A DNA stretch of 64,000 bases from a virus (Duplodnaviria; Caudoviricetes): the IMG/VR virus record IMGVR_UViG_3300024331_000152, positions 32,001 to 96,000 of that record; one strand, written 5' to 3'. The translations under genes were made by a program, and so were the position numbers. Positions 9,547 to 26,149 of this stretch are shown piece by piece. The notes under the pieces were generated by a model that ran no database searches, was not told the origin of the DNA, and saw only the letters and a program-made list of their open reading frames with translations. How positions within the stretch are numbered: position 1 is the first letter of the stretch; the number at the start of each line of letters is the position of its first letter.

Positions 9547-9555
9547 AGTTTTAAC

Positions 9556-9648: not shown

Positions 9649-9655
9649 TTTGAAC

Positions 9656-9743: not shown

Positions 9744-9744
9744 T

Positions 9745-9832: not shown

Positions 9833-9836
9833 GTTT

Positions 9837-9924: not shown

Positions 9925-9930
9925 TGTTGT

Positions 9931-10019: not shown

Positions 10020-10467
10020 TTTACTTCACGTCTGAGTTGTACCAGCGGATCAGTTTCTTGAACAGGCTAAGCCTGAGAACGAGCAGGCAGTCGGCGCGTT
10101 GTTTCCATGGTCTCAGAACCACGGTGTAAGGCATCTTTCTGTAGACTGTTTTTCCGCCTTTTATTGAGCCGCAATGCCCAACAACTTCGACTGTCCACGT
10201 GCCTAGCCTAGCGCCCGAAGACTGTTTTGGATCTAGCGTGGATACGTCAAACGAATCGACGAACGTCACCGCTTTCCGAAAATCTTTGATCGGTATTGTG
10301 ATGTCGGCACGAGAGAGACCGGTAGACACCATAAATCCGATATTAGTTCCGCTGAACCATATTCTCGCCTCAAGCTCTGGCACTTCGAAGACGGCCACGT
10401 TTACATCCCAATTACCTTCATTTAAATCGCGAGGTTTCATGACGAGAGTATATGCTAAACTGCGCGC

Positions 10468-10731
10468 ATGCCGATCCAGCGCAAGCATGCTGTGTTCTAC
10501 ATCCCTCACACCGGGCTCTACTATACCGGAGCTGGGGAGTTCCTCGACGGCAAAGGCGAAAAAATCAAGTGGGATCGTTCGATCACGGTCTACAATACTC
10601 ATGCCAGAGCCGAGCGAGCCAGAAATAGAATCCTGCAACATAATCCGTTACAGTACGCTCGCGGCGAACTGGTGGTGATCAACGTCGAGATCATCGAAAA
10701 AGAGGATGAGGTAGGAGATGGCTTTCGATAA
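10468..10731 (+). CDS. Hypothetical protein (probably leaderless mRNA)
   Basis: Preceded by TGCTAAACT-GCGCGC-ATG promoter motif. Confidence 0.6.
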   Translation: MPIQRKHAVFYIPHTGLYYTGAGEFLDGKGEKIKWDRSITVYNTHARAERARNRILQHNPLQYARGELVVINVEIIEKEDEVGDGFR

Positions 10732-10933
10732 CGGCTGGCCGAAGCATGTAGTGAATGGCGTCAGATATTCTGTCCATAACGAAGGTGAGTTCAACGGCAC
10801 GACGACGTGGATGGTAAAGCGCTACAACAACCCGAACGATGACGGCAATTACGTTGAGTGTCTGTTCTCTAGCGTCACGAAGGATGAGCTGATAGCGATC
10901 CAGCAGGCGATCAATACCGGATCGTGGGGATGA
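10718..10933 (+). CDS. Hypothetical protein
   Basis: GAGGTAGGAG RBS, coupled to upstream ORF. Confidence 0.55.
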   Translation: MAFDNGWPKHVVNGVRYSVHNEGEFNGTTTWMVKRYNNPNDDGNYVECLFSSVTKDELIAIQQAINTGSWG

Positions 10934-10954
10934 CCGCAGAAGAACTGCGGGACT

Positions 10955-12310: not shown

Positions 12311-12420
12311 TCCGAAATAATAGCGCAGATTTTCCAGAATCTGGAAACGATGCTAAAGTGGTGAGCATTCCGTGGTTCCGGCAACACGTTAAGCAACCGG
12401 AAAATCTGAAAGGTAATCTG

Positions 12421-12858
12421 ATGAATACAAAAGCTACGGCTGGTGTAGATATTTCCGCGTCATCTCCCTCTACAACATTCAGCACGAATGGCCCGGTATC
12501 GAGTTCGGCATCGTCTTTCGATGTTGCTGAAGACTTTCCAATGATCCCACTGCTTGCAAGACCAGAATATGTGCCAGTAGTAACGCACATCGTGAATGCA
12601 AATGTGATACCTAATCTGCGCGTCCTTCTCGCATCAGCGCTGGGTGCTATCGATGCAGCAATCCCAAACAAGGACCAAAATCGTGCGGTGCGGCATATTG
12701 TTCGTACTCAATTCGACGCCGCCTATGCTGATATCTTGCAACGCGCATACCCGACGTGCCAGTTCGGATGGGAAAGCTGTTATGCGGTCGAGCCGGAATT
12801 ATCTCGGTCGAAAGCTTTCAGCGGTCTGACAGTGAGTGCCGGGTCTCCTTCAAAATAA
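12421..12858 (+). CDS. Hypothetical protein
   Basis: Long ORF, start MNTKAT after AAAGGT. Confidence 0.5.
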   Translation: MNTKATAGVDISASSPSTTFSTNGPVSSSASSFDVAEDFPMIPLLARPEYVPVVTHIVNANVIPNLRVLLASALGAIDAAIPNKDQNRAVRHIVRTQFDAAYADILQRAYPTCQFGWESCYAVEPELSRSKAFSGLTVSAGSPSK

Positions 12859-12895
12859 TTTGCGAGCTTAGTGAAACCTGTGGTATTTTAGAGTT

Positions 12896-12970
12896 CGCGG
12901 TCGAGTGGATGGGTCCCACGATGCCCTCATAAGGCATAGATTGCAGGTTCGAACCCTGTGACCGCAACCA
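12896..12970 (+). tRNA. tRNA-Met(CAT), initiator-like
   Basis: ATGCC-CTCATAA-GGCAT, C1:A72 mismatch, CCA. Confidence 0.8.
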
Positions 12971-12980
12971 ATTGACTGGA

Positions 12981-13210
12981 ATCCTCGGGGCAGCGTTGAA
13001 GCGTTACTAGTACGTGGAGCTTGGTAGAGATTCGCCTTGCAGTATCGTCCCCGATAGGGCAAGGATGTGAGGCCGTCACAACTGGAGAGAGAACCGCCGA
13101 TCTCTGACAACGGCTCAGCGGTGACGCTCAGGAGAGACTGAGGATCTTCAAGGAGGACCCGGCATGACGCTTGATTACCGAGATTGCGAATCGCGAGAGT
13201 CGGTCCTCGA
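12981..13210 (+). ncRNA. Candidate structured ncRNA between tRNAs
   Basis: No credible ORF; ATCCTCGG(12981)/CTGAGGAT(13138) closing helix, CCTTGC/GCAAGG and GAGGACC/GGTCCTC helices. Confidence 0.45.
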
Positions 13211-13216
13211 ATCTTT

Positions 13217-13291
13217 GGCTGTGTAGCTCAACCAGAGCACCCGTCTTCAAAACGGTAGGTTGCAGGTATACAACCCCTGTCACAGCCACCA
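13217..13291 (+). tRNA. tRNA with UCA anticodon (UGA-reading; atypical T-loop)
   Basis: CCGT-CTTCAAA-ACGG, acceptor GGCTGTG/CACAGCC, ACCA. Confidence 0.65.
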
Positions 13292-13314
13292 ATTCTCTCG
13301 ACAAAATTTCAAAC

Positions 13315-13390
13315 GGGGTAGTAGCATAGCGGCTAATGCACTTGATTGTCGATCAAGCCATCGCGGGTTCGAGTCCCGTCTGCCCCGCCA
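13315..13390 (+). tRNA. tRNA-Asp(GTC)
   Basis: CTTGA-TTGTCGA-TCAAG, G73 CCA. Confidence 0.85.
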
Positions 13391-13408
13391 TAATTTTCAG
13401 GAGATTCT

Positions 13409-13621
13409 GTGAGCAAGTGGAGCCCAGTAGGTGAAAACGAAACCGGCTTCACTGAAGGTGGAGACCACGGAGAATTCAACTGTGGAAACTGTGTTCACAT
13501 GAAGGATGGCTGCACGCATCCGATCATGAAGGCGATCTCGCAGCGGCCTCGCAAAAAGAACGGAAACGTTGAGGTAGACGAAGATGACTGCTGCACGTTC
13601 GTACGCAGACCGGGAGACTAG
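13409..13621 (+). CDS. Small Cys-rich protein (HiPIP-like cysteine pattern)
   Basis: CGNCVHM..C...VDEDDCC; AGGAG RBS. Confidence 0.45.
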   Translation: MSKWSPVGENETGFTEGGDHGEFNCGNCVHMKDGCTHPIMKAISQRPRKKNGNVEVDEDDCCTFVRRPGD

Positions 13622-14140
13622 ATGATCTGTCCTGATTGCGACAAAGCGGAGATGGTCGAGACTGAAGTGACGCGCGACTTTAAAGTCGGTCGCAAGGAAC
13701 CTGTCACGTTGTCGGCTACGGCGGTAGTTGAGATCTGCCCAGCGTGTAAGTGTGAACTGCACGGCTGGCAGATGGAGAGAGCGAAGTCGCTCGCGATGTC
13801 TAAATGGATGAAGGAAAACCACAGGGTTGACATTAACCCGCCAGAAGATTTGCGGATCGCTCACGCGGCGTCATCGTTTCACCTCAAACAGCTTGAGCAT
13901 GAAGGTAAGGCAGCATGTTTCTATTGCCTACGTTTCTTCAACATCGAGGAGATTGAGGACTGGATCGACAATGAGCAGACGGCGCTCTGTCCGAAGTGTG
14001 GTATTGACTCCGTGATTCCAGAGACGGACAATGTAACACCAGAGTTCCTAAAGCGCATGCAGCAATATTGGTTTGATGCAGGCGCAGACCTTGCAAAGAA
14101 AGATTGTCAGGAGCCTGCTCCTGCAATGCCGGGAACGTAA
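13622..14140 (+). CDS. Double zinc-ribbon protein
   Basis: CPDC..CPAC N-terminal ribbon plus ACFYC...TALCPKCGIDSVI domain. Confidence 0.6.
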   Translation: MICPDCDKAEMVETEVTRDFKVGRKEPVTLSATAVVEICPACKCELHGWQMERAKSLAMSKWMKENHRVDINPPEDLRIAHAASSFHLKQLEHEGKAACFYCLRFFNIEEIEDWIDNEQTALCPKCGIDSVIPETDNVTPEFLKRMQQYWFDAGADLAKKDCQEPAPAMPGT

Positions 14141-14418
14141 TGATGGATAGCGTTCAGGACTGACCTTGCCATCCAACTAACCTTTGGAGATAAAACCCAA
14201 TGGAAGTCAAACGGAAAGAAATTGAAACGCTGATCGAAAAGTCAGCTAAAAGCACACGATTCTGGAGACGCTATGCGTTTTTCTCAGGCGGCATGTAATT
14301 GTGCAAATGCCATACGCTGCTTGCTCGACGCAGAACTCGAACAAGCTTGTTCCGGCCCGAAGTAGACCGGTGGTTGCACCCCGCCTCGCCGCGAGGCTAA
14401 GTCGCGGCAGAGATTTAA

Positions 14419-14735
14419 GCATGTAGAAGGCAACTAATCAGATTTCGGACGTGGGTTCGAATCCCACCGAGTCCACCAATCAGCTAACGCGCCGGGGCGA
14501 AACGCCTTGGTTCAACGAAAGTTCAGCTAAGAGTTAAAGCTGGTCCGTTGGCTGATTTGTGGGCTCGCCAAGGTTTCGACGGGATCAGAAGACGTTGTGC
14601 AGTTCATGCCGAGTGCTGTGGCCTGCGTTAAGGGACACGGAAAAAACAAATGCAGATGCTTCGGCACTGCCGATGGCAGCCTAAAAACTGACGTCTGAGG
14701 GTGGCCGCAATACTCATCAAAGAACCATGCGGCAC
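14419..14735 (+). ncRNA. ssrA: Permuted (two-piece) tmRNA, tag (A)ADASALPMAA
   Basis: 3' acceptor piece TTTCGGACGTGGGTTCGAATCCCACCGAGTCCACCA (ends 14478) precedes 5' piece GGGCTCGCCAAGGTTTCGAC (14561); G3-U70; tag ORF 14652-14684; outer boundaries approximate. Confidence 0.85.
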
Positions 14736-14745
14736 AAATACGCTA

Positions 14746-15150
14746 ATGCCTTACAAAGACAAAATTAAGCGTGCAGAGTATTGGAGGAATTATGTAATTG
14801 CCAACCCTCACGTCAAAACCAGAACTAAGACCGACAGGAAGCGCGAGAACGGCGAGGGCTGGGAGATTAAGAACCGCATCCCCTTCAAGATCTCGTGCTG
14901 CGATTGTGGTCTCGTCCATAATCTGGTTATCGTAGCTCCGAATACGAGAAAGGGCGCAGTCCTTGGCATCGCTGCGGAACGAAACGAGCGCGCAACCGGA
15001 CAGAAGCGCAGACATTTAGTGACGAACAAGCCAGAGACGCCTGAGGAGGCGGCGCGCAGACTAGGCGTGTCGAAGAAACGTCTCGAATCAATTCGCGAAA
15101 TTATGTCGCGCCCTGTGTTACGCTCAAAGCGAAAACACTTGAATCCCTAA
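14746..15150 (+). CDS. Hypothetical protein with CCDCGLVH zinc motif
   Basis: FKISCCDCGLVH motif common in phage proteins. Confidence 0.6.
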   Translation: MPYKDKIKRAEYWRNYVIANPHVKTRTKTDRKRENGEGWEIKNRIPFKISCCDCGLVHNLVIVAPNTRKGAVLGIAAERNERATGQKRRHLVTNKPETPEEAARRLGVSKKRLESIREIMSRPVLRSKRKHLNP

Positions 15151-15222
15151 GGCGTTCAGACCGCGAATCTGAGCGTCTCTTTTTTTCTTGACAACAGGCG
15201 CAGAGTTTCGTACCTTCTGTTC

Positions 15223-15711
15223 ATGCATTGAATCGCCAACACGCATTCATACGTTTTCGTCCGGTACGATCTCTCCCTCGCACAATCTGTAATCCAGTCG
15301 AGCCATGCTACCCATTCGATGGCTAATGGGCTCTCCCAGAGCCCTGAAGTTCCGCATATCGTTCTGATCGGCGTTCCAGACGTCAAGGCCCTTGAACGGG
15401 TCATTCAAAAACTCCGCGACAATCACATTGAATTTGCTGCCTTCGATGAGCCTGACGATAATCTCGGCTTGACGGCGGTCGCTACTGTTCCTCTCAACGA
15501 AGAGCAGAGACTTGTGTTCCAGAACTACAAGATCTGGACTGAAGAAGAATACTTTTACACGCGCGTAGCTCAGTGGTCAGAGCACTCCGGGAGGTTGACG
15601 GAGAGGTCGGCTGTTCGAATCGGTCCGCGCGTACCATGGGCGGTTCATTCGGTGATGTATCCGGTTCGAATCCGGTATCGCCCACCATGCGCGGTTAGCT
15701 CGACTATGTAG
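15223..15711 (+). CDS. PTH2-like peptidyl-tRNA hydrolase with in-frame UGA at codon 3
   Basis: ATG CAT TGA then in-frame YVFVRYDLSLAQSVIQSSHA...IVLIGV...FDEPDDNLGLTAVAT; leaderless promoter TTGACA-17-TACCTT. Confidence 0.7.
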
Positions 15712-15737
15712 AGGGGAAGATCCTCGCCCGCGCTCCA
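15559..15737 (+). ncRNA. Three tandem tRNA-like elements with CCA ends (15559-15636, 15638-15687, 15689-15737)
   Basis: Acceptor stems plus CCA; first has a 9-nt anticodon loop, second is essentially acceptor plus T-arm, third is truncated. Confidence 0.65.
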
Positions 15738-15743
15738 ATTCGA

Positions 15744-15819
15744 GCGCTCGTGGCTCAGCGGCAGAGCGCCGGTCTTCAAAACCGGGTCAGCGTGGGTTCG
15801 AACCTCACCGAGCGCTCCA
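15744..15819 (+). tRNA. tRNA with UCA anticodon (UGA-reading), Gly-like acceptor
   Basis: CCGGT-CTTCAAA-ACCGG; G1-C72, C2-G71, G3-C70, U73; short variable loop. Confidence 0.8.
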
Positions 15820-15926
15820 CTGAAATTTGAGGTAATATATTTCTGCGCGCCGAGCGCGAGACCTGATCAGATCCGTCTCAACGGGCTGGCACGATGTCCA
15901 GCGCATCTAGCAAAAGGAGAATCAAG

Positions 15927-16277
15927 ATGCGTACTCGTTGCAAGTTCCGTGTTGTTGGAATTGAAGATGTTGATCACCAGATCCAGAAAAGGATCTACAA
16001 AGATCAGGTAAGCGCTGAGGAATATGCGGCAATCGAGAGTTCGGAATGGCCAGACCGTAATGGATTTGGGGATATCAGAATGTACAAACTCGTTGGCCTC
16101 GGCCATGCCCAGAACATCCGGCTCGCCGCTCAGTATGATCCATCAATCCCCGAAGATCAGCGCTTTATGGAAGCAACGCCGACTGGAGAGTTGAAGTTTT
16201 ACGTCAGCAACCCAGCAGTGATCGGCGGCTTTCAGATCGGCAAAAATTACTACATTGATCTGATACCATGTGGCTAG
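15927..16277 (+). CDS. Conserved phage hypothetical protein
   Basis: MRTRCKF...EDQRFMEATPTGELKFYVSNPAV..FQIGKNYYID; AAGGAG RBS. Confidence 0.65.
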   Translation: MRTRCKFRVVGIEDVDHQIQKRIYKDQVSAEEYAAIESSEWPDRNGFGDIRMYKLVGLGHAQNIRLAAQYDPSIPEDQRFMEATPTGELKFYVSNPAVIGGFQIGKNYYIDLIPCG

Positions 16278-16305
16278 CAGACCAGTGCCCGACCCTACAC
16301 AGGTC

Positions 16306-16338
16306 AAAAGGCCCATCCAGTTTCTGGACGGGCCTTTT
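16306..16338. terminator. Bidirectional intrinsic terminator between convergent genes
   Basis: AAAAGGCCC-ATCCAGTTTCTGGAC-GGGCCTTTT. Confidence 0.65.
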
Positions 16339-16690
16339 ACTTTACTCGTATCTTCGCTAGCGGTCCGGACGCAATACTCGTGTTCATTTGTCCAGCGATC
16401 ATCTGCTTGGTCTGCACGATGTAGCAGGCCGAGGAATTCTTCGGAATCGCATCAACGTATGCCAGTAGCGTGGTAGGAGATTGCGCGTTGAGCGGGGCGT
16501 AGTTTTTTGCGCTCGTAGCCGGACAGGTTGTTCCTGAGATCATCACACGGCTTACGATGTAGCTGCAAGCTGGCCACCCCGTACCGCAAGTGACAGGCAG
16601 TTGCCATGAGATCGTAACCTTGACGTTGGGCGGCGCGGCTGACGCGTACGTAAAGACGAAAACACCGATGAGAATGATCTTTCGCAGCAT
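16337..16690 (-). CDS. Secreted FN3-like small protein
   Basis: Signal peptide then VTISW..SYIVSR..LNAQSPT..YVD..CYIVQT. Confidence 0.55.
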   Translation of the reverse strand: MLRKIILIGVFVFTYASAAPPNVKVTISWQLPVTCGTGWPACSYIVSRVMISGTTCPATSAKNYAPLNAQSPTTLLAYVDAIPKNSSACYIVQTKQMIAGQMNTSIASGPLAKIRVK

Positions 16691-16843
16691 CGGGAACCCT
16701 CAGAAAATCGTCCAGATTCTGGACCGTGAGCGCAGTATAATACGAAAAGCCAACGGGGCGTCTCTCTAAAGTGGAGACGAATAGTATCAGGTCTTGCCGT
16801 CCGTGACCTGTTTCAAGGCAAATCAAATTGAGACAGGTGAAAA

Positions 16844-17320
16844 ATGGCAGGATACGTGTACCTTATCGGTACGCCAACGTTTCGTTGGTATAAAATCGGC
16901 AAATCCCGCGTTCCTGAGATCAGGATTCAAGATCTCGGAATTCTTCTCCCTTTTAAAATTGAAATTGTTGGTATCTGGAAAGCGCACGACCATACCGCTC
17001 TTGAGTCTCTACTACACGAGCGATACGCCGAAAGAAGAATAAACGGTGAGTGGTTTCACTTCTATCGCGCTGAGGTTATGGGGATATTCGCGTCCCTTCC
17101 TGAAGAAGCGAGGATATTTCCGTCTGGAAATTCCGATTCGTTTTTCGCTAAATTTTCGAACATCGAGCGAGATTGCCCGGAAGGCAAGAGACTTCATTTG
17201 TCTACTAGGAGGGTGCGTGGAAACTTTACAGATGAGCAGAGAGCCTACTTGCGACAAAAAGCGATAGAGGAGCATAAAAAGAAAAAAGCGCTACGGGATG
17301 CAAATAAGAGTATGCTTTAA
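16844..17320 (+). CDS. GIY-YIG (T5orf172-like) nuclease
   Basis: GYVYLI..YKIGKS..RIQDL...LESLLHERYAERRINGEWF. Confidence 0.8.
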   Translation: MAGYVYLIGTPTFRWYKIGKSRVPEIRIQDLGILLPFKIEIVGIWKAHDHTALESLLHERYAERRINGEWFHFYRAEVMGIFASLPEEARIFPSGNSDSFFAKFSNIERDCPEGKRLHLSTRRVRGNFTDEQRAYLRQKAIEEHKKKKALRDANKSML

Positions 17321-17402
17321 GCGTCGGGAAACCGACTATCCAGCAGGCTTGCAACGCGATTGTATGGGGCTTTAGTCTGCGGCCCGTTTCAAGGAGAACC
17401 AA

Positions 17403-18266
17403 ATGATGTATATCAAGCATTTCGTCCTCGCCGTGCGCGTCAACGGTAAAATCCTCAAAGAACATGACCAAGTTGTCCACCTCCCTTTCGGAGCTGAGTA
17501 TGAGCTGTTGCTCAAGAACCTCAACTCGCGCCGCGCGATGGTCGGTGTCTCCATTGACGGCAAGCGTACCAGTGATTGTCGTTTCGTAATTCCAGCTAAC
17601 TCGGAGAGCGTTCTTGAGCGCTACGTCAAAAACGGCAACATGGACTCCGGGAACCGCTTCAAGTTCATCGAACGCACCTCGGCAGTTGAAGAACATCGCG
17701 GAGTGGGATCGGACGACGGTATCGTGCGCGCCGAGTTTTGGGCAGAGCGAGAAGTTGTCACGCTTCCTCGCACAATCATCAATGATTCATGGCTTCCTTC
17801 ATCTCCGTATGATCGCAGGCGTCGCACGCTTGGAAATTCTGGAGGCTTTAGAAGTTTCAGCGGCATCACAGGACAAAGTGTTCCATCTGATGATGTGTCG
17901 TGCATGTACGGTAGTGTTCAAGGTGGAGCTGAGGCCCCGGGATCGAGCTTTAACGTAGGCTCGCTCAATGCGCAGGTGACATACACGTCATCGTTGGGCG
18001 CGGACATGTCGAAGATCGCAGATAACGACGCGGGCATCACCGTCCCGGGCAGCGAGTCGTCGCAGCGCTTCCACTGGACAAACGGCTTCGAGCTGGAGAG
18101 CACAAGCACCGTAATCATACTTCAGCTTCGTGGCGAGATCGGCGGACAGGCTGTTGCTGCGCCGGTCACGGTGGAGTATAAGCCTGTCTGCATCACCTGT
18201 GGCAAGACCAACAAGGGTACCAGCCGTTTCTGTGACCAGTGCGGAACGGCATTGCAAATTCTTTAA
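17403..18266 (+). CDS. Hypothetical protein with C-terminal zinc ribbon
   Basis: AAGGAG RBS; CITCG..SRFCDQCG. Confidence 0.65.
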   Translation: MMYIKHFVLAVRVNGKILKEHDQVVHLPFGAEYELLLKNLNSRRAMVGVSIDGKRTSDCRFVIPANSESVLERYVKNGNMDSGNRFKFIERTSAVEEHRGVGSDDGIVRAEFWAEREVVTLPRTIINDSWLPSSPYDRRRRTLGNSGGFRSFSGITGQSVPSDDVSCMYGSVQGGAEAPGSSFNVGSLNAQVTYTSSLGADMSKIADNDAGITVPGSESSQRFHWTNGFELESTSTVIILQLRGEIGGQAVAAPVTVEYKPVCITCGKTNKGTSRFCDQCGTALQIL

Positions 18267-18274
18267 ATAACCTC

Positions 18275-18467
18275 TTGCAATTTGCGCGCATCATAGGTTA
18301 AGGTAGGAAGCGTTATGAAACTCAACCGAGCCAATTCGAACCATTCGTTTAATCCAGCGGCACAACCGCAGGGTACAACGCGTGTGCGTGGCTCGGCCTG
18401 AACAGCATCCTTTAGCAATGCGATGCAGTACAGACCCCCGAGCCTAGATAATAGACTCGGGGGTTTT
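18275..18467 (+). promoter_or_regulatory. Promoter, leader peptide and attenuator of tRNA operon 2
   Basis: TTGCAA-18-TAAGGT; uORF 18315-18401 MKLNRANSNHSFNPAAQPQGTTRVRGSA; terminator ACCCCCGAG/CTCGGGGGT-TTT; GGCTCGG(18390) pairs CCGAGCC at 18326 or 18438. Confidence 0.8.
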
Positions 18468-18474
18468 GATTGGC

Positions 18475-18999
18475 ATGGGAAAGTGGCTGCATCGTGTTTC
18501 GAATATCGATTTTGATTCTCTCACTGGTGATTGCTCTACTTGTGGGCGCGTGAGATTGAAAGTAAAGAAAGGCGGCAGGAGATTTGCATGCGCTGTATCT
18601 GAGCAACGCTGGTGCGATGGACAAAGCGTATCAAAGAGAAGGGCTGCTCGCCGTAGACAAACTAGAAAGTTGCTCGCAAAGCTTCTATCTAGTGGATGTC
18701 GGATATGTCGAGTAGCCAAGAAAGGAATTCATTGTCATCATCTCGATAGTTCCACAAAGAGTTTCAATATTTCGCAAGGGTATACAGACTGTTCCAGAGA
18801 GCTGTTAATTGCCGAGCTGAAAAAATGTATTGCCGTGTGTCAGCAATGCCATACAAAGATTCACTTCAGGCAGTTTGTAGTATCTGAGGATTTGATTTCT
18901 GAGTGGAATAGAGATGTAGATGTTTTATTCACGCGTAGCTCAATGGTAGAGCCCTGCACTGTTAATGCAGTCATTGGGGGTTCGATTCCCTCCGCGTGA
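18475..18999 (+). CDS. HNH endonuclease
   Basis: GCRIC..IHCHHLD..K.FNISQ..AELKKCIAVCQQCH; 3' end runs into tRNA-Asn. Confidence 0.75.
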   Translation: MGKWLHRVSNIDFDSLTGDCSTCGRVRLKVKKGGRRFACAVSEQRWCDGQSVSKRRAARRRQTRKLLAKLLSSGCRICRVAKKGIHCHHLDSSTKSFNISQGYTDCSRELLIAELKKCIAVCQQCHTKIHFRQFVVSEDLISEWNRDVDVLFTRSSMVEPCTVNAVIGGSIPSA

Positions 19000-19003
19000 G
19001 CCA
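18929..19003 (+). tRNA. tRNA-Asn(GTT)
   Basis: CTGCA-CTGTTAA-TGCAG, CCA. Confidence 0.85.
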
Positions 19004-19010
19004 AATTAGT

Positions 19011-19084
19011 TGCGTCTTCGTTCAGTGGCAGGACGGTTGACTCTGAATCAACACACGGGAGTTCGATTCTCTCAGACGCAGCCA
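19011..19084 (+). tRNA. tRNA-Gln(CTG)
   Basis: GTTGA-CTCTGAA-TCAAC, CCA. Confidence 0.85.
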
Positions 19085-19092
19085 AATTTTGT

Positions 19093-19168
19093 TGGGAGAT
19101 GGCCGAGCGGCGTAGGCACGAGCCTTTGGATCTCGTACAGGCTGGTTCAACTCCAGCTCTCCCAGCCA
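19093..19168 (+). tRNA. tRNA-Gln(TTG)
   Basis: CTTTGGA loop, U1-A72, CCA. Confidence 0.85.
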
Positions 19169-19169
19169 T

Positions 19170-19245
19170 GCGGATGTAGTTCAATTGGCAGAACGTTGGA
19201 GTGCCACTCCAAAGGTTGCCGGATCGTTGCCGGTCATCCGCTCCA
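19170..19245 (+). tRNA. tRNA-Gly(GCC)
   Basis: TTGGA-GTGCCAC-TCCAA, U73 CCA. Confidence 0.8.
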
Positions 19246-19282
19246 GTTTGAGGTGAGAGGAATGCATTGAATTGATGATGAC

Positions 19283-19358
19283 GCTGCCGTAGCTCAAGTG
19301 GTAGAGCACCTGTCTCGTAAACAGGAGGTTGGGACTTCGAGTGTCCCCGGTAGCTCCA
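19283..19358 (+). tRNA. tRNA-Thr(CGT)
   Basis: CCTGT-CTCGTAA-ACAGG, CCA. Confidence 0.85.
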
Positions 19359-19378
19359 GTTTTCCCTGAGGTGATCTT

Positions 19379-19915
19379 ATGATCCGTAGAACAGTTTTGA
19401 TGCTGAACGCGAGCTACGAACCGCTGCGGATCATCAGCGCAAAGAAGTCCCTGACACTCTTAACCAAGGGTGTTGCCGTGGTGGAGGTACCAACCAAGAT
19501 CCAAGTCCACGCGGGGATCTACTTGCCGAGTGTTATTCGGTTGCGTCATTTCCGCAACGTGCCGCACAAGAGGCCAGTGCCGTCGAGAAAGAACATCTTC
19601 ACCAGAGACGGTTTTCGCTGCTTGTATTGCGGTGCCAAGGCTCCGAAAGTAGTGCTCGAACTTGAGCACATCGTTCCGAGATCGAGAGGCGGAGCAAACG
19701 CTTGGGACAACCTTTGTGCATCTTGTCACGATTGCAACCAGAAGAAGCGTGACAGGACTCCGGAGGAAGCAGGCATGAAGTTGATTCACAGACCTCTGCC
19801 CGCGACCGTACACACCGGCAGGTTCGTCTTGAAGACGATGGGTAACGAAATTGCAGAGTGGGGTCCGTTTCTATGGAAGGACTCTAAGGGCGAACAGAAG
19901 TTGCAGTTCGCATAA
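19379..19915 (+). CDS. HNH endonuclease
   Basis: [56 protein letters not shown]. Confidence 0.9.
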
Positions 19916-19975
19916 CAAGAAATAGCGCCGGGTTATGGATTGACAATTAAGCTCCGTGTGAAATAAAACGGTCTA

Positions 19976-20368
19976 ATGCCATACAGTGACCCGGCGAAAC
20001 AAAAAGAAGCTCTTCGGCGATGGTATCGCAGAGTTGTTCGTAAAAGACGCACAGATTGGTTTAAAGGAAAGCAATGTGCGACTTGTGGAAGTACGCGAAG
20101 ACTTGAATTGGATCATGTTGATCCAGCGCTGAAGGTGGATCATAAAATTTGGTCATGGAGCGAGAAAAGACGCACTGAAGAGCTTAATAAATGTGTTCCA
20201 CGGTGTAGAACTTGTCACATCGAGAGATCGGCAGAGCAACAACGAAAGCCATTGGTTCACGGAACGCGCGATGGATATATGTGGCATCGTTGTCGCTGTA
20301 GGGAATGCGTTAAAGCTGCGTCGCTCTACCGTAATGAGCAGCGACGTTTGAAGGGACGAAAGAATTAA
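19976..20368 (+). CDS. HNH endonuclease
   Basis: CATCGS..LELDHVDP..EELNKCVPRCRTCH, HGT..Y..CRCREC. Confidence 0.8.
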   Translation: MPYSDPAKQKEALRRWYRRVVRKRRTDWFKGKQCATCGSTRRLELDHVDPALKVDHKIWSWSEKRRTEELNKCVPRCRTCHIERSAEQQRKPLVHGTRDGYMWHRCRCRECVKAASLYRNEQRRLKGRKN

Positions 20369-20369
20369 A

Positions 20370-20444
20370 GCACTCGAAGCATAGTCGGAGATGCCCTCGG
20401 CTTGTATCCGAGAGAACAGAGTTCGAATCTCTGCGAGTGCTCCA
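20370..20444 (+). tRNA. tRNA-Thr(TGT)
   Basis: CTCGG-CTTGTAT-CCGAG, CCA. Confidence 0.85.
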
Positions 20445-20510
20445 AAGATGTCGGATGTGGCCCCGAGTTCGAGGAGGAATAGGCGAGAGCTTATCGGGGC
20501 TCAGGTTTAT

Positions 20511-20586
20511 GGAGCTATTGGCCGAGCGGTTTAGGCGCGGGACTGTGACCCCCGACACGAGTGTTCAACTCACTCATAGCTCCCCA
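20511..20586 (+). tRNA. tRNA-His(GTG)
   Basis: CTGTGAC loop, G-1:C73. Confidence 0.85.
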
Positions 20587-20590
20587 ATTT

Positions 20591-20665
20591 GGGGCTGTAG
20601 TGCTAATGGGAACACACTGGTTTTGCACTCCAGAGTTGAGAGTTCGATTCTCTCCAGCTCCACCA
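20591..20665 (+). tRNA. tRNA-Ala(TGC)
   Basis: G3-U70, TTTGCAC loop, CCA. Confidence 0.85.
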
Positions 20666-20699
20666 AATTTACGCAGGCGCTGAGCCCTCTCTGTTCTAT

Positions 20700-20862
20700 A
20701 CGTGACACGCTCAGGGAAGAAGATCAAAGGTGTCGCGTATATGCTCGCTTTTGGTTACAACCTTGAAAGAATTAAGGCAGAAATCGCAAAATGCGTCGTA
20801 CGCTGCGCGAACTGTCACCGCCGCCGAACGGCGAAGGTTTTAGGAAATTGGAAGTTGCACCA
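20700..20862 (+). pseudogene. Remnant of an HNH endonuclease
   Basis: Frame reading LERIKAEIAKCVVRCANCHRRRTAK with no N-terminal half. Confidence 0.6.
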
Positions 20863-20863
20863 T

Positions 20864-20940
20864 CAGGGCGTAGCCTAGCGGCTTCAGGCACTCGCTTCGG
20901 GAGCGAGATGACGTGAGTTCGAATCTCACCGCCCCGACCA
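20864..20940 (+). tRNA. tRNA-Pro(CGG)
   Basis: CTCGC-TTCGGGA-GCGAG, CCA. Confidence 0.85.
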
Positions 20941-20986
20941 TTTTAACGAGCCGGTTTTCATTAAAGAAATCGGCTGAAAATTTTAA

Positions 20987-21064
20987 CCGGGTTTAGCCTA
21001 GTCTGGCTCAGGCACCTGCTTTGGGAGCAGGACGACGGGGGTTCAAATCCCTCAGCCCGGACCA
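20987..21064 (+). tRNA. tRNA-Pro(TGG)
   Basis: CCTGC-TTTGGGA-GCAGG, CCA. Confidence 0.85.
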
Positions 21065-21065
21065 T

Positions 21066-21154
21066 GCACCCGTAGCCTAGCGGATTCAGGTAACGGTCTA
21101 CGAAACCGTCGAGGGAAACCTCTTACGCAGGTTCGATTCCTGCCGGGTGCTCCA
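21066..21154 (+). tRNA. tRNA-Arg(ACG) with long variable arm
   Basis: ACGGT-CTACGAA-ACCGT, GAGG-GAAA-CCTC extra arm. Confidence 0.8.
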
Positions 21155-21169
21155 TAATTGTAAGTGTTC

Positions 21170-21224
21170 GGCGCGGTGAGGCTGGGCGTGGCACGGTGAG
21201 GTTTGGTTCGGTATGGTTTGGCAT
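21170..21224 (+). repeat. GGY-NN pentamer mini-array (11 perfect units), putative guide RNA
   Basis: GGCGC GGTGA GGCTG GGCGT GGCAC GGTGA GGTTT GGTTC GGTAT GGTTT GGCAT. Confidence 0.85.
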
Positions 21225-21250
21225 TCTTGCCATGAGGAGGGTTATGCGAA

Positions 21251-21655
21251 TTGAAAAGGACATTTGGTCAGCGAGCTGCTGACTGGGTTACTGAAGCAAG
21301 TGGTAGCTGGCCGTTCATTCTGTGGTCAGTTGTTCTTGGCGTACTCTGGGTCTTGTCGAATGTGAGCAAGGTCCTTGTCTTCGATCCGTATCCTTTCCTG
21401 TTTTTGAACTGGGTGCTGACTGTGATCAGCACGTTGCAATCCCCGCTCATCATGCTGTCGCAGAATCGGCAGAATGAAACTGATCGCGAGCGCGTAGATA
21501 TGATCGTCCAGAAGCTGGACGATCATATCCGGGAAATTAAATTGCGCGCATGGCGAAGTTGTGGTAGGGTAGTCAAGTTGGGCTCAGGCCCGAGATTGAT
21601 CTTTGAAATCAAGTTTCCGTGGGTTGTAAACATGGATGGCCTTAAAAGATCCTGA
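21251..21655 (+). CDS. DUF1003-family membrane protein
   Basis: TFGQRAADWV..GSWPFI, FDPYPFLFLN..LQSPLIMLSQNRQ..DR. Confidence 0.85.
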   Translation: MKRTFGQRAADWVTEASGSWPFILWSVVLGVLWVLSNVSKVLVFDPYPFLFLNWVLTVISTLQSPLIMLSQNRQNETDRERVDMIVQKLDDHIREIKLRAWRSCGRVVKLGSGPRLIFEIKFPWVVNMDGLKRS

Positions 21656-21830
21656 CGTTAGGTTAGGCTCCGAAGCGTCCGGTCCACGGGATCAAGTTTC
21701 CGCTGACAGTGTTGCTTACATGGCAGGGTAACCTGCATTTCACTACGAATGAAAAACCGGGGCAACCCGGGTGTACCCGAAAGGGTTGCAGCACGACACC
21801 AGCGGAGAAAGTTTGGGTTGACTTGTTTGC
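21550..21830 (+). ncRNA. Candidate structured ncRNA
   Basis: Follows TAAATT-GCGCGC promoter motif; nested helices AGTCAA/TTGACT, TTCCGTGG/CCACGGGA, TCCGCTG/CAGCGGA, GNRA hairpins. Confidence 0.45.
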
Positions 21831-21831
21831 A

Positions 21832-21900
21832 TACATGGTAGCTCATTTGGTAGAGCATTCGCCTCTTAAGCGAAGGGTAGTCGGTTCAATTCCGAGTCGC
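21832..21900 (+). pseudogene. tRNA-Lys(CTT) pseudogene
   Basis: D, anticodon (TTCGC-CTCTTAA-GCGAA) and T arms present; acceptor stem and CCA missing. Confidence 0.6.
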
Positions 21901-22118
21901 AGAACGTCTCTGTACCTGAGTACGTTGATGACAATCTTCGCGCCATCAAGCGTGAGATCGAGAGCCGTCAGGCTGACCGTCGTGCGGCTCGTGTACGCGA
22001 GTTGAAGTCGCAGCGCGCCGGTCTTGCAACCGCTCAGGAGAAGCGGGAGGCCATCGAGAAGGAGCTTGCCTCACTCGGCGAGCCTGTCTAGCCATCGTCC
22101 AGAAACTGGAAAGGCCCG

Positions 22119-22340
22119 CTATGTGCGGGCCTTCTTTTTGTTTGCCTGCTCCAGCTTCTTGCGGGCACGTTCCTTGCTGATAGCGAGGTTCAGTGCGCTG
22201 GTGTACGAGAGGCAGTAGATAGCACGCGTGCCCTTGGCGCGCAGTTCCATCCAGTCAGCCTTGAACTCGACTACGATGGAGCGGGTCTTACCCCGCTCCC
22301 ATACGCAGTTCTCAGTCTCGACGACATCTTGAGGGGGCAC
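22119..22340 (-). CDS. Small basic hypothetical protein
   Basis: IVVEFK..MELRAKGTR..Y.LSY phage motif. Confidence 0.5.
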   Translation of the reverse strand: MPPQDVVETENCVWERGKTRSIVVEFKADWMELRAKGTRAIYCLSYTSALNLAISKERARKKLEQANKKKART

Positions 22341-22468
22341 ACGCGGTACTCAACCGAACCCATCACAAACGTACAGCAAGCGCTTGAGAGATACGGCATC
22401 AAGAACGTGCACGCGGGTCATCTGGAGAAGCTTGCCGAGGTATTTGGGATTGCGGCGAAAAAAGAAGC

Positions 22469-22628
22469 TTGCAATTTGCGCGCATCCTGAGTTAAGCTCT
22501 ATTTCGTTATGCAGAGAACTATAGCCATGTCGATCACCAAAGGGACCAAGAGGGTCATTTGGGGAGGCGTGTCTTAGGGGTCTGCACGAGTAGGTTTCAT
22601 CAGACCCCGACTCAGGTCGGGGTTTTTT
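22469..22628 (+). promoter_or_regulatory. Promoter, leader peptide and attenuator of tRNA operon 3
   Basis: TTGCAA-18-TAAGCT; uORF 22509-22577 MQRTIAMSITKGTKRVIWGGVS; terminator ACCCCGAC-TCAG-GTCGGGGT-T5; antiterminator GGGGTCTG(22577)/CAGACCCC(22601). Confidence 0.8.
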
Positions 22629-22646
22629 GTTGTTTGACAAGTTTAT

Positions 22647-22716
22647 AGGGGATGATCTGGGATCGACGAGGTCTCCAAAACCTCACAGCGGAGTTCAATT
22701 CTCCGATCCCCTGCCA
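22647..22716 (+). tRNA. tRNA-Trp(CCA)
   Basis: GAGGT-CTCCAAA-ACCTC, G73 CCA. Confidence 0.85.
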
Positions 22717-22719
22717 TTT

Positions 22720-22796
22720 GCCAGCGAAGCAGAAGTGGATATTGCGCGCGTCTCATAAGCGCGTTGTAGTGGGTTCGAGTCCCACCGTTGGCACCA
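22720..22796 (+). tRNA. tRNA-Met/Ile2(CAT)
   Basis: CGCGT-CTCATAA-GCGCG, CCA. Confidence 0.8.
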
Positions 22797-22864
22797 AGTT
22801 CACAGCGGTGTTCGCCTTACTCTGACGGCGCAATACCGTCCCGCTGTGAATCCAGTTTCTGGAC

Positions 22865-22944
22865 GCACGTGTAGCTGCTAGTCGGTATGTAGCAGTCCCC
22901 TTATAAGGGACCGGTTGTGGGTTCGACACCCGCCACGTGCACCA
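22865..22944 (+). tRNA. tRNA-Ile(TAT)
   Basis: GTCCC-CTTATAA-GGGAC, CCA. Confidence 0.8.
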
Positions 22945-22995
22945 AAATTAGCATCAAACCTGTTACGTCACCGGGAGACTGACAGGAGGAGAGCT

Positions 22996-23202
22996 ATGCT
23001 CATTACCCTGTTTTGGATCATTGCAGTTCTCGTTGTGGCTGGTCTTCTGTTGTACCTGATCAACACGATCCCGGGAATCGATCCAACGATCCACGCACTG
23101 ATCAGGGCTGTTGTGATCATCGTCTGCGTGGTCTTTGTGCTGTACTTTGTGTTCTCGTTGTTTAGCGGAGTGGCAATTCCAAGTCCGCACTTTACGAGGT
23201 AG
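22996..23202 (+). CDS. Small two-TM membrane protein
   Basis: AGGAGGAG RBS; two hydrophobic helices around NTIPGIDP. Confidence 0.65.
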   Translation: MLITLFWIIAVLVVAGLLLYLINTIPGIDPTIHALIRAVVIIVCVVFVLYFVFSLFSGVAIPSPHFTR

Positions 23203-23207
23203 TTTTT

Positions 23208-23282
23208 GGGCTGTAAGCTTTGTCGGCGAAGCAATCGACTCTTAATCGATAGAGCAGGGTTCGATTCCCTGACGGCCCACCA
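23208..23282 (+). tRNA. tRNA-Lys(CTT)
   Basis: ATCGA-CTCTTAA-TCGAT, CCA. Confidence 0.85.
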
Positions 23283-23340
23283 AATTTTGCGAAGGAGAAG
23301 TGAGATGCGAAAACAGAAAGATGACCCAGATAAACGAATT

Positions 23341-23416
23341 GGGGTCGTCGCATAGAGGCAACTGCAACGGACTTTTAATCCGAATGACGTGAGTTCGAAT
23401 CTCACCGGCCCCACCA
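23341..23416 (+). tRNA. tRNA-Lys(TTT)
   Basis: CGGA-CTTTTAA-TCCG, CCA. Confidence 0.85.
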
Positions 23417-23425
23417 TAGTTTTTT

Positions 23426-23502
23426 GCTGGCGTAACTCAGACGGACAGAGTGCCTGTCTTCTAAACAGGAAGCCGCTGGTTCGACTCCAGCCGTCAGCAC
23501 CA
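23426..23502 (+). tRNA. tRNA-Arg(TCT)
   Basis: CCTGT-CTTCTAA-ACAGG, CCA. Confidence 0.85.
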
Positions 23503-23503
23503 T

Positions 23504-23579
23504 GGCCCCTTAGCTCAGTCGGAAGAGCGGATCGGTCCTAACGATAAGGTCGGGAGTTCGAATCTCTCAGGGGTCACCA
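23504..23579 (+). tRNA. tRNA-Arg(CCT)
   Basis: ATCG-GTCCTAA-CGAT, CCA. Confidence 0.8.
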
Positions 23580-23585
23580 AGTTTT

Positions 23586-23662
23586 GCTGCCGTATCGGCC
23601 TCGCCTCCGAAGCGAGATCCCGTAGGTGGATAAGGCTGGTTCGAATCCAGTCGGCAGCTCCA
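23586..23662 (+). tRNA. D-armless tRNA-Arg(CCG)-like RNA
   Basis: Acceptor, CTCGC-CTCCGAA-GCGAG, long variable region, T-arm, CCA; D-arm replaced by 7 nt. Confidence 0.6.
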
Positions 23663-23667
23663 GTTTT

Positions 23668-23742
23668 GCGGATGTAGATCAACGGTAGATCGGGTGTCTT
23701 ACAAGCACTTCGTCGTGGGTTCAACTCCTACCATCCGCACCA
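23668..23742 (+). tRNA. tRNA-Val(TAC)
   Basis: GGTGT-CTTACAA-GCACT, CCA. Confidence 0.85.
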
Positions 23743-24220
23743 ACTTGTCGTGATCGAGTTCCCAATGGTGATTACGGCACAAGCCGACAAGATTATTAGG
23801 GCGATTAACGATTCCTAATGTCGTAGATTCGGCGAACTCACAAACGGGAGTGAGATGACAACAATCAACGTAGAGGTTGTAGCCGCAGATGGCGCATTTC
23901 TTCAAGAGTCCCGCTCTTAAAGCAACGCTCCTTGCATGAGATCGCACTACAGTATCGTAGGCGTTTCGAGATCCGGACTTTTTAAGATCTGCTAGGGTGA
24001 CAGATTCAAAATCTCGGCGACGGCAATCGCGACAACTTTTAACCCGATAGCGGTCTAGTATTTTGCCGCATTTTGGGCATGAATATATCTTTCGCGCATA
24101 CCCTTTCCAAGGGGTTCTAATTCTTTCTTTATTGTTGTAGATGGCCGCACATGACGAATTACAAAAACGTGGATTATTTGTTGGAACGTCGCAGTTGGCG
24201 CAGGTACGACGAAAGTTCAT
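23699..24220 (-). CDS. HNH endonuclease inserted antisense in the tRNA operon
   Basis: FCNSSCAA, CAICGY..VDCCHL...NNLVGLCRNHHWELD. Confidence 0.85.
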   Translation of the reverse strand: MNFRRTCANCDVPTNNPRFCNSSCAAIYNNKERIRTPWKGYARKIYSCPKCGKILDRYRVKSCRDCRRRDFESVTLADLKKSGSRNAYDTVVRSHARSVALRAGLLKKCAICGYNLYVDCCHLTPVCEFAESTTLGIVNRPNNLVGLCRNHHWELDHDKLVRMVGVEPTTKCL

Positions 24221-24347
24221 AGAAAGATGGTACCGGAGCTGTAGACAACGGCACCACCTTTTTAAAGAAGTAGCACAGGTTATCGTGCGAAAGAGTCATT
24301 CCTTATTCTGGACAAGACAAGGACTGGCTGTATGTTCAAAATTGAAC

Positions 24348-24424
24348 GCTGCCGTAGCTCAGTTGGCCAGAGCACACCCTTGGTAAGGGTGAGGTCGTCA
24401 GTTCGAAACTGACCGGTAGCTCCA
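24348..24424 (+). tRNA. tRNA-Thr(GGT)
   Basis: CACCC-TTGGTAA-GGGTG, CCA. Confidence 0.9.
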
Positions 24425-24430
24425 TATTGT

Positions 24431-24506
24431 TGGCGGATAGCTCAGGTGGTCAGAGCACGCGACCGATAATCGCGAGGCCGGAGTTCAACTCTCCGTCCGC
24501 CAACCA
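24431..24506 (+). tRNA. tRNA-Ile(GAT)
   Basis: CGCGA-CCGATAA-TCGCG, CCA. Confidence 0.85.
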
Positions 24507-24512
24507 AAGTTA

Positions 24513-24596
24513 GCGGGGGTCGCTCAGTGGTAGAGCCGCTGCCTTCCAAGCAGCCGACCTTGTGTCATGCGGGTTCGAATCCCGTCCCCCGCTCCA
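24513..24596 (+). tRNA. tRNA-Gly(TCC) with extended variable region
   Basis: GCTGC-CTTCCAA-GCAGC, U73 CCA. Confidence 0.8.
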
Positions 24597-25335
24597 AAGC
24601 TTTCAAGATCGCTTGGGCGTCACTATTATAGAAGCCACTCGAATTGAGACAGTTGAATTCGAGGACGTAAATATCCTCTCCAACTAAACAGAGATCCATC
24701 ACTACGGTCGGGTGCGGAAGCCAATCTTTCGCGCAGTCTGCGGCGGCTTCGAATACCCACTCGTACACAGTCTCCCGGATGCGACGGACTCCGTTGTGCC
24801 GGTATTGCGATCCAGCTACTACAACACCATCGACAACAAAGAAACGCCACTCCTGAGTAATCTCCCTTACTGGGCTAATCAGCATCTCGTCTTCGCCGTT
24901 CGGCTCTGTCTGTTCAATAAGCCACCAGTTGCGGTCTGCGGGTTCAAGAACCATTCCCGTATGGAGCTTATCTTTTACCGACTTCACGAAGACTGGTTCG
25001 GCTATCCACTCACTGCGCAGCTCAGCAGCCGTAATGGTCTTGATTTCCTTGTTTAGCATGCGCGGGTGCTTCCATGTGCGGGGATCGAACATACCGGGCC
25101 TGTAGAAGGCTCCCGGGCTCATCAGAGACGGCGCAAGGGAAGCCAACAGCGTAGAACCATAGACAAGCGTCGGCTGCAAGAGATCGAAGCCAGCAGGGAT
25201 TATCAGCTCATGCGAAAAGGGTACTACCTTCACTGTCTCGTAAGACATGCCGAGCGCTTGTAGCGCATCGGTCATCTGTTGAGTATTCGTATCGAGGATG
25301 CCGAATCCTTCTGAGTGCTCGACTAGCCATTGCAT
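24565..25335 (-). CDS. ATP-grasp (DUF4343/R2K-like) protein
   Basis: PVFVKS..K..TG, EWRFFVVDG.VV..SQY, VMDLC..VLEFNCLNSSGFY. Confidence 0.8.
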   Translation of the reverse strand: MQWLVEHSEGFGILDTNTQQMTDALQALGMSYETVKVVPFSHELIIPAGFDLLQPTLVYGSTLLASLAPSLMSPGAFYRPGMFDPRTWKHPRMLNKEIKTITAAELRSEWIAEPVFVKSVKDKLHTGMVLEPADRNWWLIEQTEPNGEDEMLISPVREITQEWRFFVVDGVVVAGSQYRHNGVRRIRETVYEWVFEAAADCAKDWLPHPTVVMDLCLVGEDIYVLEFNCLNSSGFYNSDAQAILKALERGTGFEPA

Positions 25336-25358
25336 ACAACTAATGGTAAACTGCGCGC

Positions 25359-25613
25359 ATGGCCCTCCGTATAAACAATGAAAGCAAAGAAGAGCGCGAC
25401 GCCGAGCGTGCGCTATGGCGCAAACAGCAAATCGAAGATCGTGAGTTCGAGAAGACGCAGACGATGGAATATCAGCGTCGGGAAGACCTCATATCCGAAC
25501 GAGATCTCTGGGCCGGGACAGTACAAGGGTTGATGGATAACGGACGGACTCTCGATCAGGCAATCGGACTTGCAGATAAGCTACTCGTAGAGTACAAGGT
25601 TCGATTTTCATGA
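25359..25613 (+). CDS. Hypothetical protein (leaderless)
   Basis: TGGTAAACT-GCGCGC-ATG. Confidence 0.6.
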   Translation: MALRINNESKEERDAERALWRKQQIEDREFEKTQTMEYQRREDLISERDLWAGTVQGLMDNGRTLDQAIGLADKLLVEYKVRFS

Positions 25614-25816
25614 TCTTCATCGCTTATTTGACTATTGGAATTCTCTACGCTATCGCCCGGTATGGCAAAATACGCCGTGTTGCGAAAGTGGTGGTTGCTG
25701 AGCGCTGCTGGCGTTTCCTGAGCCCCGCTATGATCGAGATGGTTGGAGCCTCAAGCGTGTGTCTTCTCTGGCCAATTTTTGTCTACATCGACATCACCTC
25801 GTGATAAACTGCGCGC

Positions 25817-26149
25817 ATGCCGCTATATGCGAAACCCGGCGAACGTCAGTACGATGGAACACTTCCCTTTCCCGGAATCGTCTATTGCTCTGACTGCGGT
25901 GCGCCGATCATTGACACGCCAACACATCACTATACTCACCGCATTCGAGTTCATTCTGTAAAGATCCAACTTGAGCGTTTGCCGACAACAAAACCAGCGA
26001 TTCTTCCACATGAATATAAGCCTCGGATCAGTGAAGAGGATAGCTGTCTGTGTGGCGCGTGCTTAGAGGGCAATTGTCTAGCCTGTGACGGCGGAGAGTG
26101 TAGATGTGTGTGTGCGCTCGAAATGGACGAAATCAGAGTTCGCCGGTAG
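25817..26149 (+). CDS. Cys-rich hypothetical protein (leaderless)
   Basis: TGATAAACT-GCGCGC-ATG; multiple CxxC. Confidence 0.55.
   Translation: MPLYAKPGERQYDGTLPFPGIVYCSDCGAPIIDTPTHHYTHRIRVHSVKIQLERLPTTKPAILPHEYKPRISEEDSCLCGACLEGNCLACDGGECRCVCALEMDEIRVRR

Follow-up and report, generated by a model that had tools for sequence, protein, structure and literature searches.

The transfer RNA (tRNA) genes of the virus record IMGVR_UViG_3300024331_000152 (Duplodnaviria; Caudoviricetes; 142,794 bp, 52.9% G+C) are confined to positions 9053-24596, on the + strand, of the 64,000-nucleotide (nt) stretch analysed here, which covers positions 32,001 to 96,000 of the record and is called the window. At 18275-21154, one of these tRNA blocks, operon 2, is preceded by a promoter, a short open reading frame (ORF) and an intrinsic terminator. 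This cassette, unit 2, is probably one of three ribosome-mediated transcription attenuators, each governing one phage tRNA operon. We base this reading on the anatomy of the units, the match between the codons of each ORF and the tRNAs of its own operon, the conservation of that match and the co-variation of the RNA helices, and from these we infer that the ORF is translated, where transcription starts, how the kinetics run and in which direction control acts.

An original prediction, made from the letters of the sequence, had described unit 2 as a leader-peptide attenuator whose codons sample the tRNAs of the operon downstream, and the parts that it named are present (Table 1). The -10 element of the promoter ends 10 nt upstream of the ATG of the 28-codon leader ORF; this promoter was not detected by a consensus scan, its 19-nt motif occurs only twice in the 143-kb genome (in units 2 and 3, the latter at 22469), and it is conserved in the relative L002/L011. 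The terminator hairpin begins 32 nt past the TGA of leader 2 and is followed by the sequence TTTTGATT; a simple consensus scan missed it because its loop is longer than 8 nt. The alternative pairing was likewise found as claimed: GGCTCGG (region 2), which stops 5 nt short of the end of the stop codon, is exactly complementary to CCGAGCC both early in the leader (region 1) and within the 5′ arm of the terminator (region 3). The 11 downstream anticodons are all as originally listed, with the genes at 18929-21154. A 30-codon frame (18423-18515) that crosses the hairpin also opens at an ATG some 12 nt before terminator 2, and an ATG lies at a similar position in the relatives L002, L004 and L006.

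Sister cassettes precede tRNA blocks 1 and 3, bringing the total to three, and in 3/3 a promoter and a short ORF are followed, 20-32 nt past the stop codon, by a hairpin and T tract. The three leaders end in TAA, TGA and TAG, respectively.

Leader codons and operon tRNAs matched closely. In leader 2, 18/27 sense codons are read by operon-2 tRNAs, against 31% expected from genome codon usage (binomial P = 1.5e-4), and own-operon codons account for 13/22 in leader 1 (P = 7e-5) and 15/21 in leader 3 (P = 5e-6), while scoring the same leaders against the other operons gave 2-4 codons only. Coverage of the operon tRNAs by leaders 1, 2 and 3 is 10/11, 11/11 and 11/11, the second figure confirming the claim that every tRNA downstream of unit 2 has a cognate leader codon. 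Of the 668 small ATG ORFs of the genome, the leaders alone join at least 54% own-set codons with near-complete tRNA coverage. Summed over 12 leaders, the own-set share was 64% in the ORF frame, and shifting the frame lowered it to 35% and 28%. This frame control rules out base composition as the source of the match, and chance is ruled out by the same control together with the binomial tests and the comparison with other small ORFs, as well as by the replication of the units in the relatives described below.

The match is at the level of the tRNA (isoacceptor) rather than of the amino acid. Operons 2 and 3 each have some of the isoacceptors for Thr, Arg and Gly, and codons for these residues matched their own operon in 7/7 cases in leader 2 and 7/8 in leader 3 (14/15 in total, P = 3.4e-4). 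When each peptide was held fixed and its synonymous codons were redrawn according to genome usage, the count of Watson-Crick-matched isoacceptors lay above expectation with P of 0.01-0.09 in 11/12 leaders; with relaxed U34 wobble this null had no discriminating power.

Relatives were retrieved with the BCS1-like AAA ATPase encoded between operon 1 and the middle tRNA group, a query that returned a graded series of uncultured relatives (84-62% identity), five contigs of which were analysed. Gene order and tRNA blocks are conserved in these relatives and tRNA content differs. Searches of IMG/VR with the promoter motif and with a 287-amino-acid neighbour protein gave no close relatives, named phages gave only tRNA-sized matches or distant proteins, and a 56% relative (L008) has no tRNAs nearby. 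P0040 was found to lie on a bacterial contig. Six related phages together provided 14 leaders (four of type 3 and five each of types 1 and 2), every one with 12-18 codons for its own operon, compared with 1-7 for the others. The original prediction had proposed leader/tRNA co-variation in related phages as a check, and on this count each of the 14 leaders matches its own array. In the type-2 leader of L003 the order of residues is reshuffled, and still 17/22 codons are own codons and 11/11 tRNAs are sampled. Between the window and the 84% relative, the central part of leader 2 differs at few bases, and the single synonymous change among its conserved codons exchanges two codons that the same tRNA reads. 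The partition of tRNAs among the three operons is also kept across the six phages, with operon 1 collecting every tRNA with a long variable arm (Leu, Ser, Tyr), plus Cys.

Start codons of the leader units are ATG or GTG, and a -35/-10 pair ends 6-10 nt before the start codon in 13/14 units (two of them overlapping matches read by eye). This spacing suggests that the leader messenger RNAs (mRNAs) may be leaderless or nearly so.

Folding was consistent with a switch of the classical kind. Naked leaders formed a long 1:2 hairpin together with the terminator. All 12 leaders measured have a terminator with T tract 20-44 nt past the stop codon (free energy, dG, -16.6 to -23.9) and an antiterminator (dG -13.5 to -23.4), with region 2 lying between -39 and +14 nt relative to the end of the stop codon. 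In folds of a transcript ending before the 3′ arm of the terminator, in which 30 nt were masked as the ribosome footprint, the sequence at the stop codon remained paired with the terminator 5′ arm for stalls at codons 1 to ~20 in unit 2, 1 to ~14 in unit 1 and 1 to ~18 in unit 3, and a ribosome at the last codons or at the stop masked region 2 itself.

The helices vary in sequence among phages yet remain complementary; GGCTCGG/CCGAGCC, for example, becomes GGCCCGG/CCGGGCC in L006. Because a multiple alignment of the five unit-2 leaders was unsuited to formal pair counting, with diverged sequences and poorly aligned terminator columns, duplexes of leader and terminator arm were compared instead, and cognate pairs averaged -17.9 kcal/mol against -13.2 for non-cognate pairs (permutation P = 1e-5). 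A trp/his-type layout in front of tRNA genes, as first proposed, is thus borne out in its parts: short ORF, terminator, alternative helix at the stop codon, isoacceptor match and an antiterminator that varies in step with the terminator arm.

We propose that these parts would work as follows. Transcription from a host-type promoter would begin either at the start codon of a 22-28-codon ORF or a few bases ahead of it. A ribosome reading this ORF fast would come to the stop codon and cover region 2, the terminator would form, and the polymerase would halt before the tRNA genes. A ribosome delayed within the first ~20 codons would instead cover region 1 and leave region 2 free to pair with the terminator 5′ arm before the 3′ arm exists, permitting read-through into the tRNA genes, and on a leader free of ribosomes the pairing would be between regions 1 and 2 and transcription would end. 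The time of transit through the leader would sum the availability of the charged tRNAs of the set, host and phage copies together, and would report exactly these because the ORF is written mostly in codons that they read, one to three per isoacceptor. The predicted outcome is negative feedback, in which shortage of a set raises its synthesis and plenty turns it off. Codon demand, decay of host tRNAs and anticodon nucleases are possible triggers; that host anticodon nucleases are the natural one is speculation.

The same switch might have amino-acid supply, that is tRNA charging, as its natural input, coupling tRNA output to host nutrition instead of to tRNA loss. A ribosome senses charged tRNA only, hence both signals act on one switch; the classical trp and his attenuators respond to charging, and the leaders are strongly biased at the amino-acid level as well. 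A loop of this sort would be futile, however, because more tRNA does not relieve a shortage of amino acid, and an amino-acid sensor would not need the choice among synonymous codons by which the leaders track the isoacceptors of their own operons. We consider it unlikely that charging is the natural input.

Several observations weigh against attenuation by leader translation. Most units have no Shine-Dalgarno sequence, so that translation would have to be leaderless and would depend on the inferred start site. With the complete transcript at equilibrium, the terminator persisted at all stall positions except one in leader 1, and because the terminator wins in this setting, which tells little about a kinetic switch, the switch must be kinetic and is presumed to act during transcription, as in trp. 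Taken singly, antiterminator energies only modestly beat those of shuffled sequences (fraction 0-0.2), and the T tract of terminator 2 has just four consecutive T. Each tRNA is sampled by one to three codons and not by runs, hence sensitivity to the loss of a single tRNA may be low. Sampling is incomplete in places: Pro(GGG) is unsampled by the leader in the three relatives that possess it, as is a Thr(TGT) inserted in operon 1 of L006, and window leader 2 retains a Phe codon though operon 2 has no tRNA-Phe (tRNA-Phe is present in operon 2 of all four relatives, and no remnant of it was detected in that of the window). The HNH-like ORF (460 nt) parts attenuator 2 from the first tRNA, three endonuclease ORFs are present within operon 2, and a promoter-like site at 20763 makes internal promoters possible. 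The place of the HNH-like ORF corrects the earlier description; in all four relatives it is missing at that site and the terminator adjoins tRNA-Asn.

The scarcity of Shine-Dalgarno sequences would also fit terminators that are plain insulators ending upstream transcription, the short ORFs being untranslated by-products, or peptides or RNAs with another role, and the tRNAs being made from other promoters. The hairpins of the Caulobacter phage phiCbK, considered below, were annotated by its authors simply as terminators, and attenuator-derived RNAs are reported to be able to act in trans in Sinorhizobium (PMC6614838). Insulation does not explain the frame- and operon-specific codon match of 14 leaders, nor why a promoter lies downstream of the preceding gene and ahead of the terminator, nor why the sequence at the stop codon keeps its complementarity to the terminator arm. 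A consensus scan, moreover, found no promoter-like site in the interval that separates terminator 1 or terminator 3 from the first tRNA of its operon. We judge this explanation quite unlikely in view of the codon match and the placing of the promoters.

Control could, finally, be reversed or rely on another factor, with leader translation loading or releasing that factor, or with UGA-suppressor tRNAs driving read-through of the leader 2 stop and so opening the terminator late in infection. The phage encodes two tRNAs with a TCA anticodon (13217-13288 and 15744-15819), leader 2 ends in TGA, and the ATG-started frame at 18423-18515 crosses the terminator. UGA suppression cannot be the common mechanism, however, because TGA is not the stop codon of leader 1 (TAA), of leader 3 (TAG) or of the leader-2 homologues in L003 and L004 (both TAG), and the position of region 2 at the stop codon in all units fits the classical logic. 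Control of this kind is, in our estimation, very improbable, and attenuation by stalling within the leader is preferred.

Units of this design were sought in other tRNA-rich phages with a scanner for ORF-plus-terminator units before tRNA blocks, which recovers all three window units. In scans of the regions that hold the tRNA genes of XacN1 (a Xanthomonas phage) and MD18 (a Phaeobacter phage), no tRNA block had such a unit in front of it, and hence not every tRNA-rich phage has the design; in the present phage, the middle tRNA groups (12896-15819) likewise gave none. In Caulobacter phage phiCbK (JX100813, 47.7-52.6 kb), by contrast with these, a promoter, a short ORF and a terminator precede both a Phe/Val/Ile/Gln block and a Pro/Lys/Leu/Ala/Ser block. 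The ORF before the former is rich in those residues, and about three-quarters of the residues of gp083 (45 amino acids, annotated as hypothetical), which lies before the latter, match its block; a unit before Glu/Asp matched weakly (3/19 codons). Between 46800 and 52800, gp083 and two unannotated short ORFs sit between promoters and annotated terminators that precede tRNA blocks, and all three look like leader peptides. The phiCbK genome paper makes no mention of attenuators or leaders. The phiCbK units share with ours the order of promoter, short ORF, terminator and tRNA block, although they belong to an unrelated phage lineage, have no sequence similarity to ours and include one ORF of 45 codons.

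Leader-peptide attenuators are familiar from the amino-acid operons of enterobacteria (trpL, hisL, leuL, pheL and the multivalent thrL and ilvL). The phage units have in common with these a short ORF, alternative 1:2/2:3/3:4 helices, an intrinsic terminator and codons that report the charged tRNA tied to the regulated genes, and with thrL and ilvL the use of several inputs (Thr and Ile; Ile, Val and Leu). They have no sequence relationship to the enterobacterial leaders, and they differ in that the genes downstream are tRNAs and homing-type endonucleases instead of the biosynthetic enzymes or synthetases that are the classical targets; in having 10-11 inputs at one to three codons each, in place of runs of a single codon, with isoacceptor resolution; and in leader mRNAs that probably have no 5′ untranslated region. 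In E. coli, the pheM attenuator controls pheST (phenylalanyl-tRNA synthetase) and so has, like the phage units, a component of the decoding machinery as its target rather than a biosynthetic enzyme, but it takes one amino-acid input and acts on a protein-coding, bacterial chromosomal gene. T-box riboswitches also use terminator and antiterminator helices to set read-through, in their case by the state of one specific tRNA; unlike the phage leaders, they bind uncharged tRNA directly, do not need translation, and serve synthetase and amino-acid genes. A cmscan search of 8000-26000 against Rfam at E <= 1 returned only tRNA, transfer-messenger RNA (tmRNA) and weak, chance-like matches, with no Leu, His, Thr or Trp leader and no T-box or specifier structure, and in full-text literature searches leader-peptide attenuation of tRNA genes was not found described. 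The mechanism is classical; the target, and a leader with many inputs resolved to the isoacceptor, are new.

Table 1. Features of the three units, their operons and additional tRNA genes (window coordinates).
Feature	Position	Strand	Details
Unit 1 (sister)	8884-9052	+	-35 8884-8889, -10 8907-8912; terminator 9022-9044 plus T tract
Leader ORF 1	8923-8994	+	23 codons; region 2 at 8974-8986
Operon 1	9053-10019	+	five Leu, weak Cys(GCA) 9132-9207, four Ser, one Tyr
Weak tRNA-Cys(GCA)	9132-9207	+	perfect acceptor stem, U73
Second TCA-anticodon tRNA	13217-13288	+	Rfam / low-threshold ARAGORN
Promoter, unit 2	18275-18304	+	-35 TTGCAA 18275-18280, 18-nt spacer, -10 TAAGGT 18299-18304; read from the sequence, putative start site
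Leader ORF 2	18315-18401	+	ATG, 28 codons, TGA
Region 1	18326-18332	+	CCGAGCC, codons 3-5; 1:2 helix dG -16.4
Region 2	18390-18396	+	GGCTCGG, codons 25-27; 2:3 helix dG -15.5; upstream antiterminator strand
Intrinsic terminator 2 (regions 3, 4)	18434-18472	+	hairpin 18434-18464 plus T tract; dG -20.2 kcal/mol
Region 3	18438-18444	+	CCGAGCC
HNH-like ORF	18475-18927	+	151 codons; Cys/His motifs by eye, no Pfam match
tRNAs Asn(GTT), Gln(CTG), Gln(TTG), Gly(GCC), Thr(CGT)	18929-19358	+	
Endonuclease-type ORF	19379-19915	+	HNH by Pfam
Endonuclease-type ORF	19976-20368	+	no Pfam match
tRNAs Thr(TGT), His(GTG), Ala(TGC), Pro(CGG), Pro(TGG), Arg(ACG)	20370-21154	+	
Lys-like pseudogene (probable)	21838-21898	+	Rfam 37.9 bits, model positions 7-64
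Unit 3 (sister)	22469-22632	+	promoter motif 22469-22498; terminator 22602-22625 plus T tract
Leader ORF 3	22509-22577	+	22 codons; region 2 at 22570-22585, spanning stop codon
Operon 3	22647-24596	+	Trp(CCA), Met, Ile(TAT), Lys x2, Arg(TCT), Arg(CCT), aberrant CCG, Val, Thr(GGT), Ile(GAT), Gly(TCC)
tRNA-Trp(CCA)	22647-22716	+	A1-U72, G73, short D arm

Four of the tRNA genes, missed by the default run, were added by means of Rfam and low-threshold ARAGORN. At the positions of the tRNA-Trp and the weak tRNA-Cys, relatives have canonical Trp and Cys genes. A partial tRNA between operons 2 and 3 (21838-21898), with a CTT-type Lys anticodon loop and no acceptor stem, is probably a pseudogene. In operon 3, the tRNA-like gene at 23586-23662 has a CCG anticodon loop and a T arm, and its acceptor stem is perfect, but it lacks a normal D arm and has a long extra segment; its equivalent in L005 is a canonical Arg(CCG), and the L005 leader has a CGG codon where the window leader has AGG. 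The two TCA-anticodon tRNAs are predicted UGA readers, and the stop codon of leader 2 is the codon that they would read; relatives have one such tRNA at the matching place, beside Met and Asp, and XacN1 has annotated suppressor tRNAs. A two-piece (permuted) tmRNA lies at 14386-14775 (Rfam tmRNA_permuted, 78 bits), and several relatives also carry one. Such tmRNAs are typically found in alpha-proteobacteria and a few other groups, and the presence of one in the phage hints at the host.

HNH-type genes or remnants are scattered among the tRNA genes (18475-18927, 19379-19915, 19976-20368, 20702-20878 and, on the - strand, 23699-24220), and the positions of endonuclease genes between tRNAs vary from relative to relative. 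They look like homing elements carried in regulated operons, segB in the tRNA region of T4 being a comparable rider of the homing type.

Phage tRNA genes are usually viewed as constitutively expressed cargo, of use in correcting codon bias or in replacing host tRNAs that have been cleaved, and to our knowledge their regulation is essentially unexplored. If the three units act as proposed, this would be the first leader-peptide attenuation of tRNA genes and, with 10-11 inputs, the most multivalent attenuator known. Experiments are feasible now, because related units occur in phiCbK, a phage of a model bacterium, and the leaders would provide compact natural sensors of isoacceptor availability, of use in synthetic biology. 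More tentatively, several unrelated phage lineages may operate their tRNA operons as closed-loop controllers of supply with isoacceptor resolution, such that depletion of any member, including by anticodon-nuclease cleavage, would induce the whole set and the array would serve as an inducible counter-defence. A phage equipped in this way would gauge decoding speed for defined sets of tRNAs and produce tRNAs on demand, which opens to testing why phages carry the particular tRNAs that they do, and why these are so grouped.

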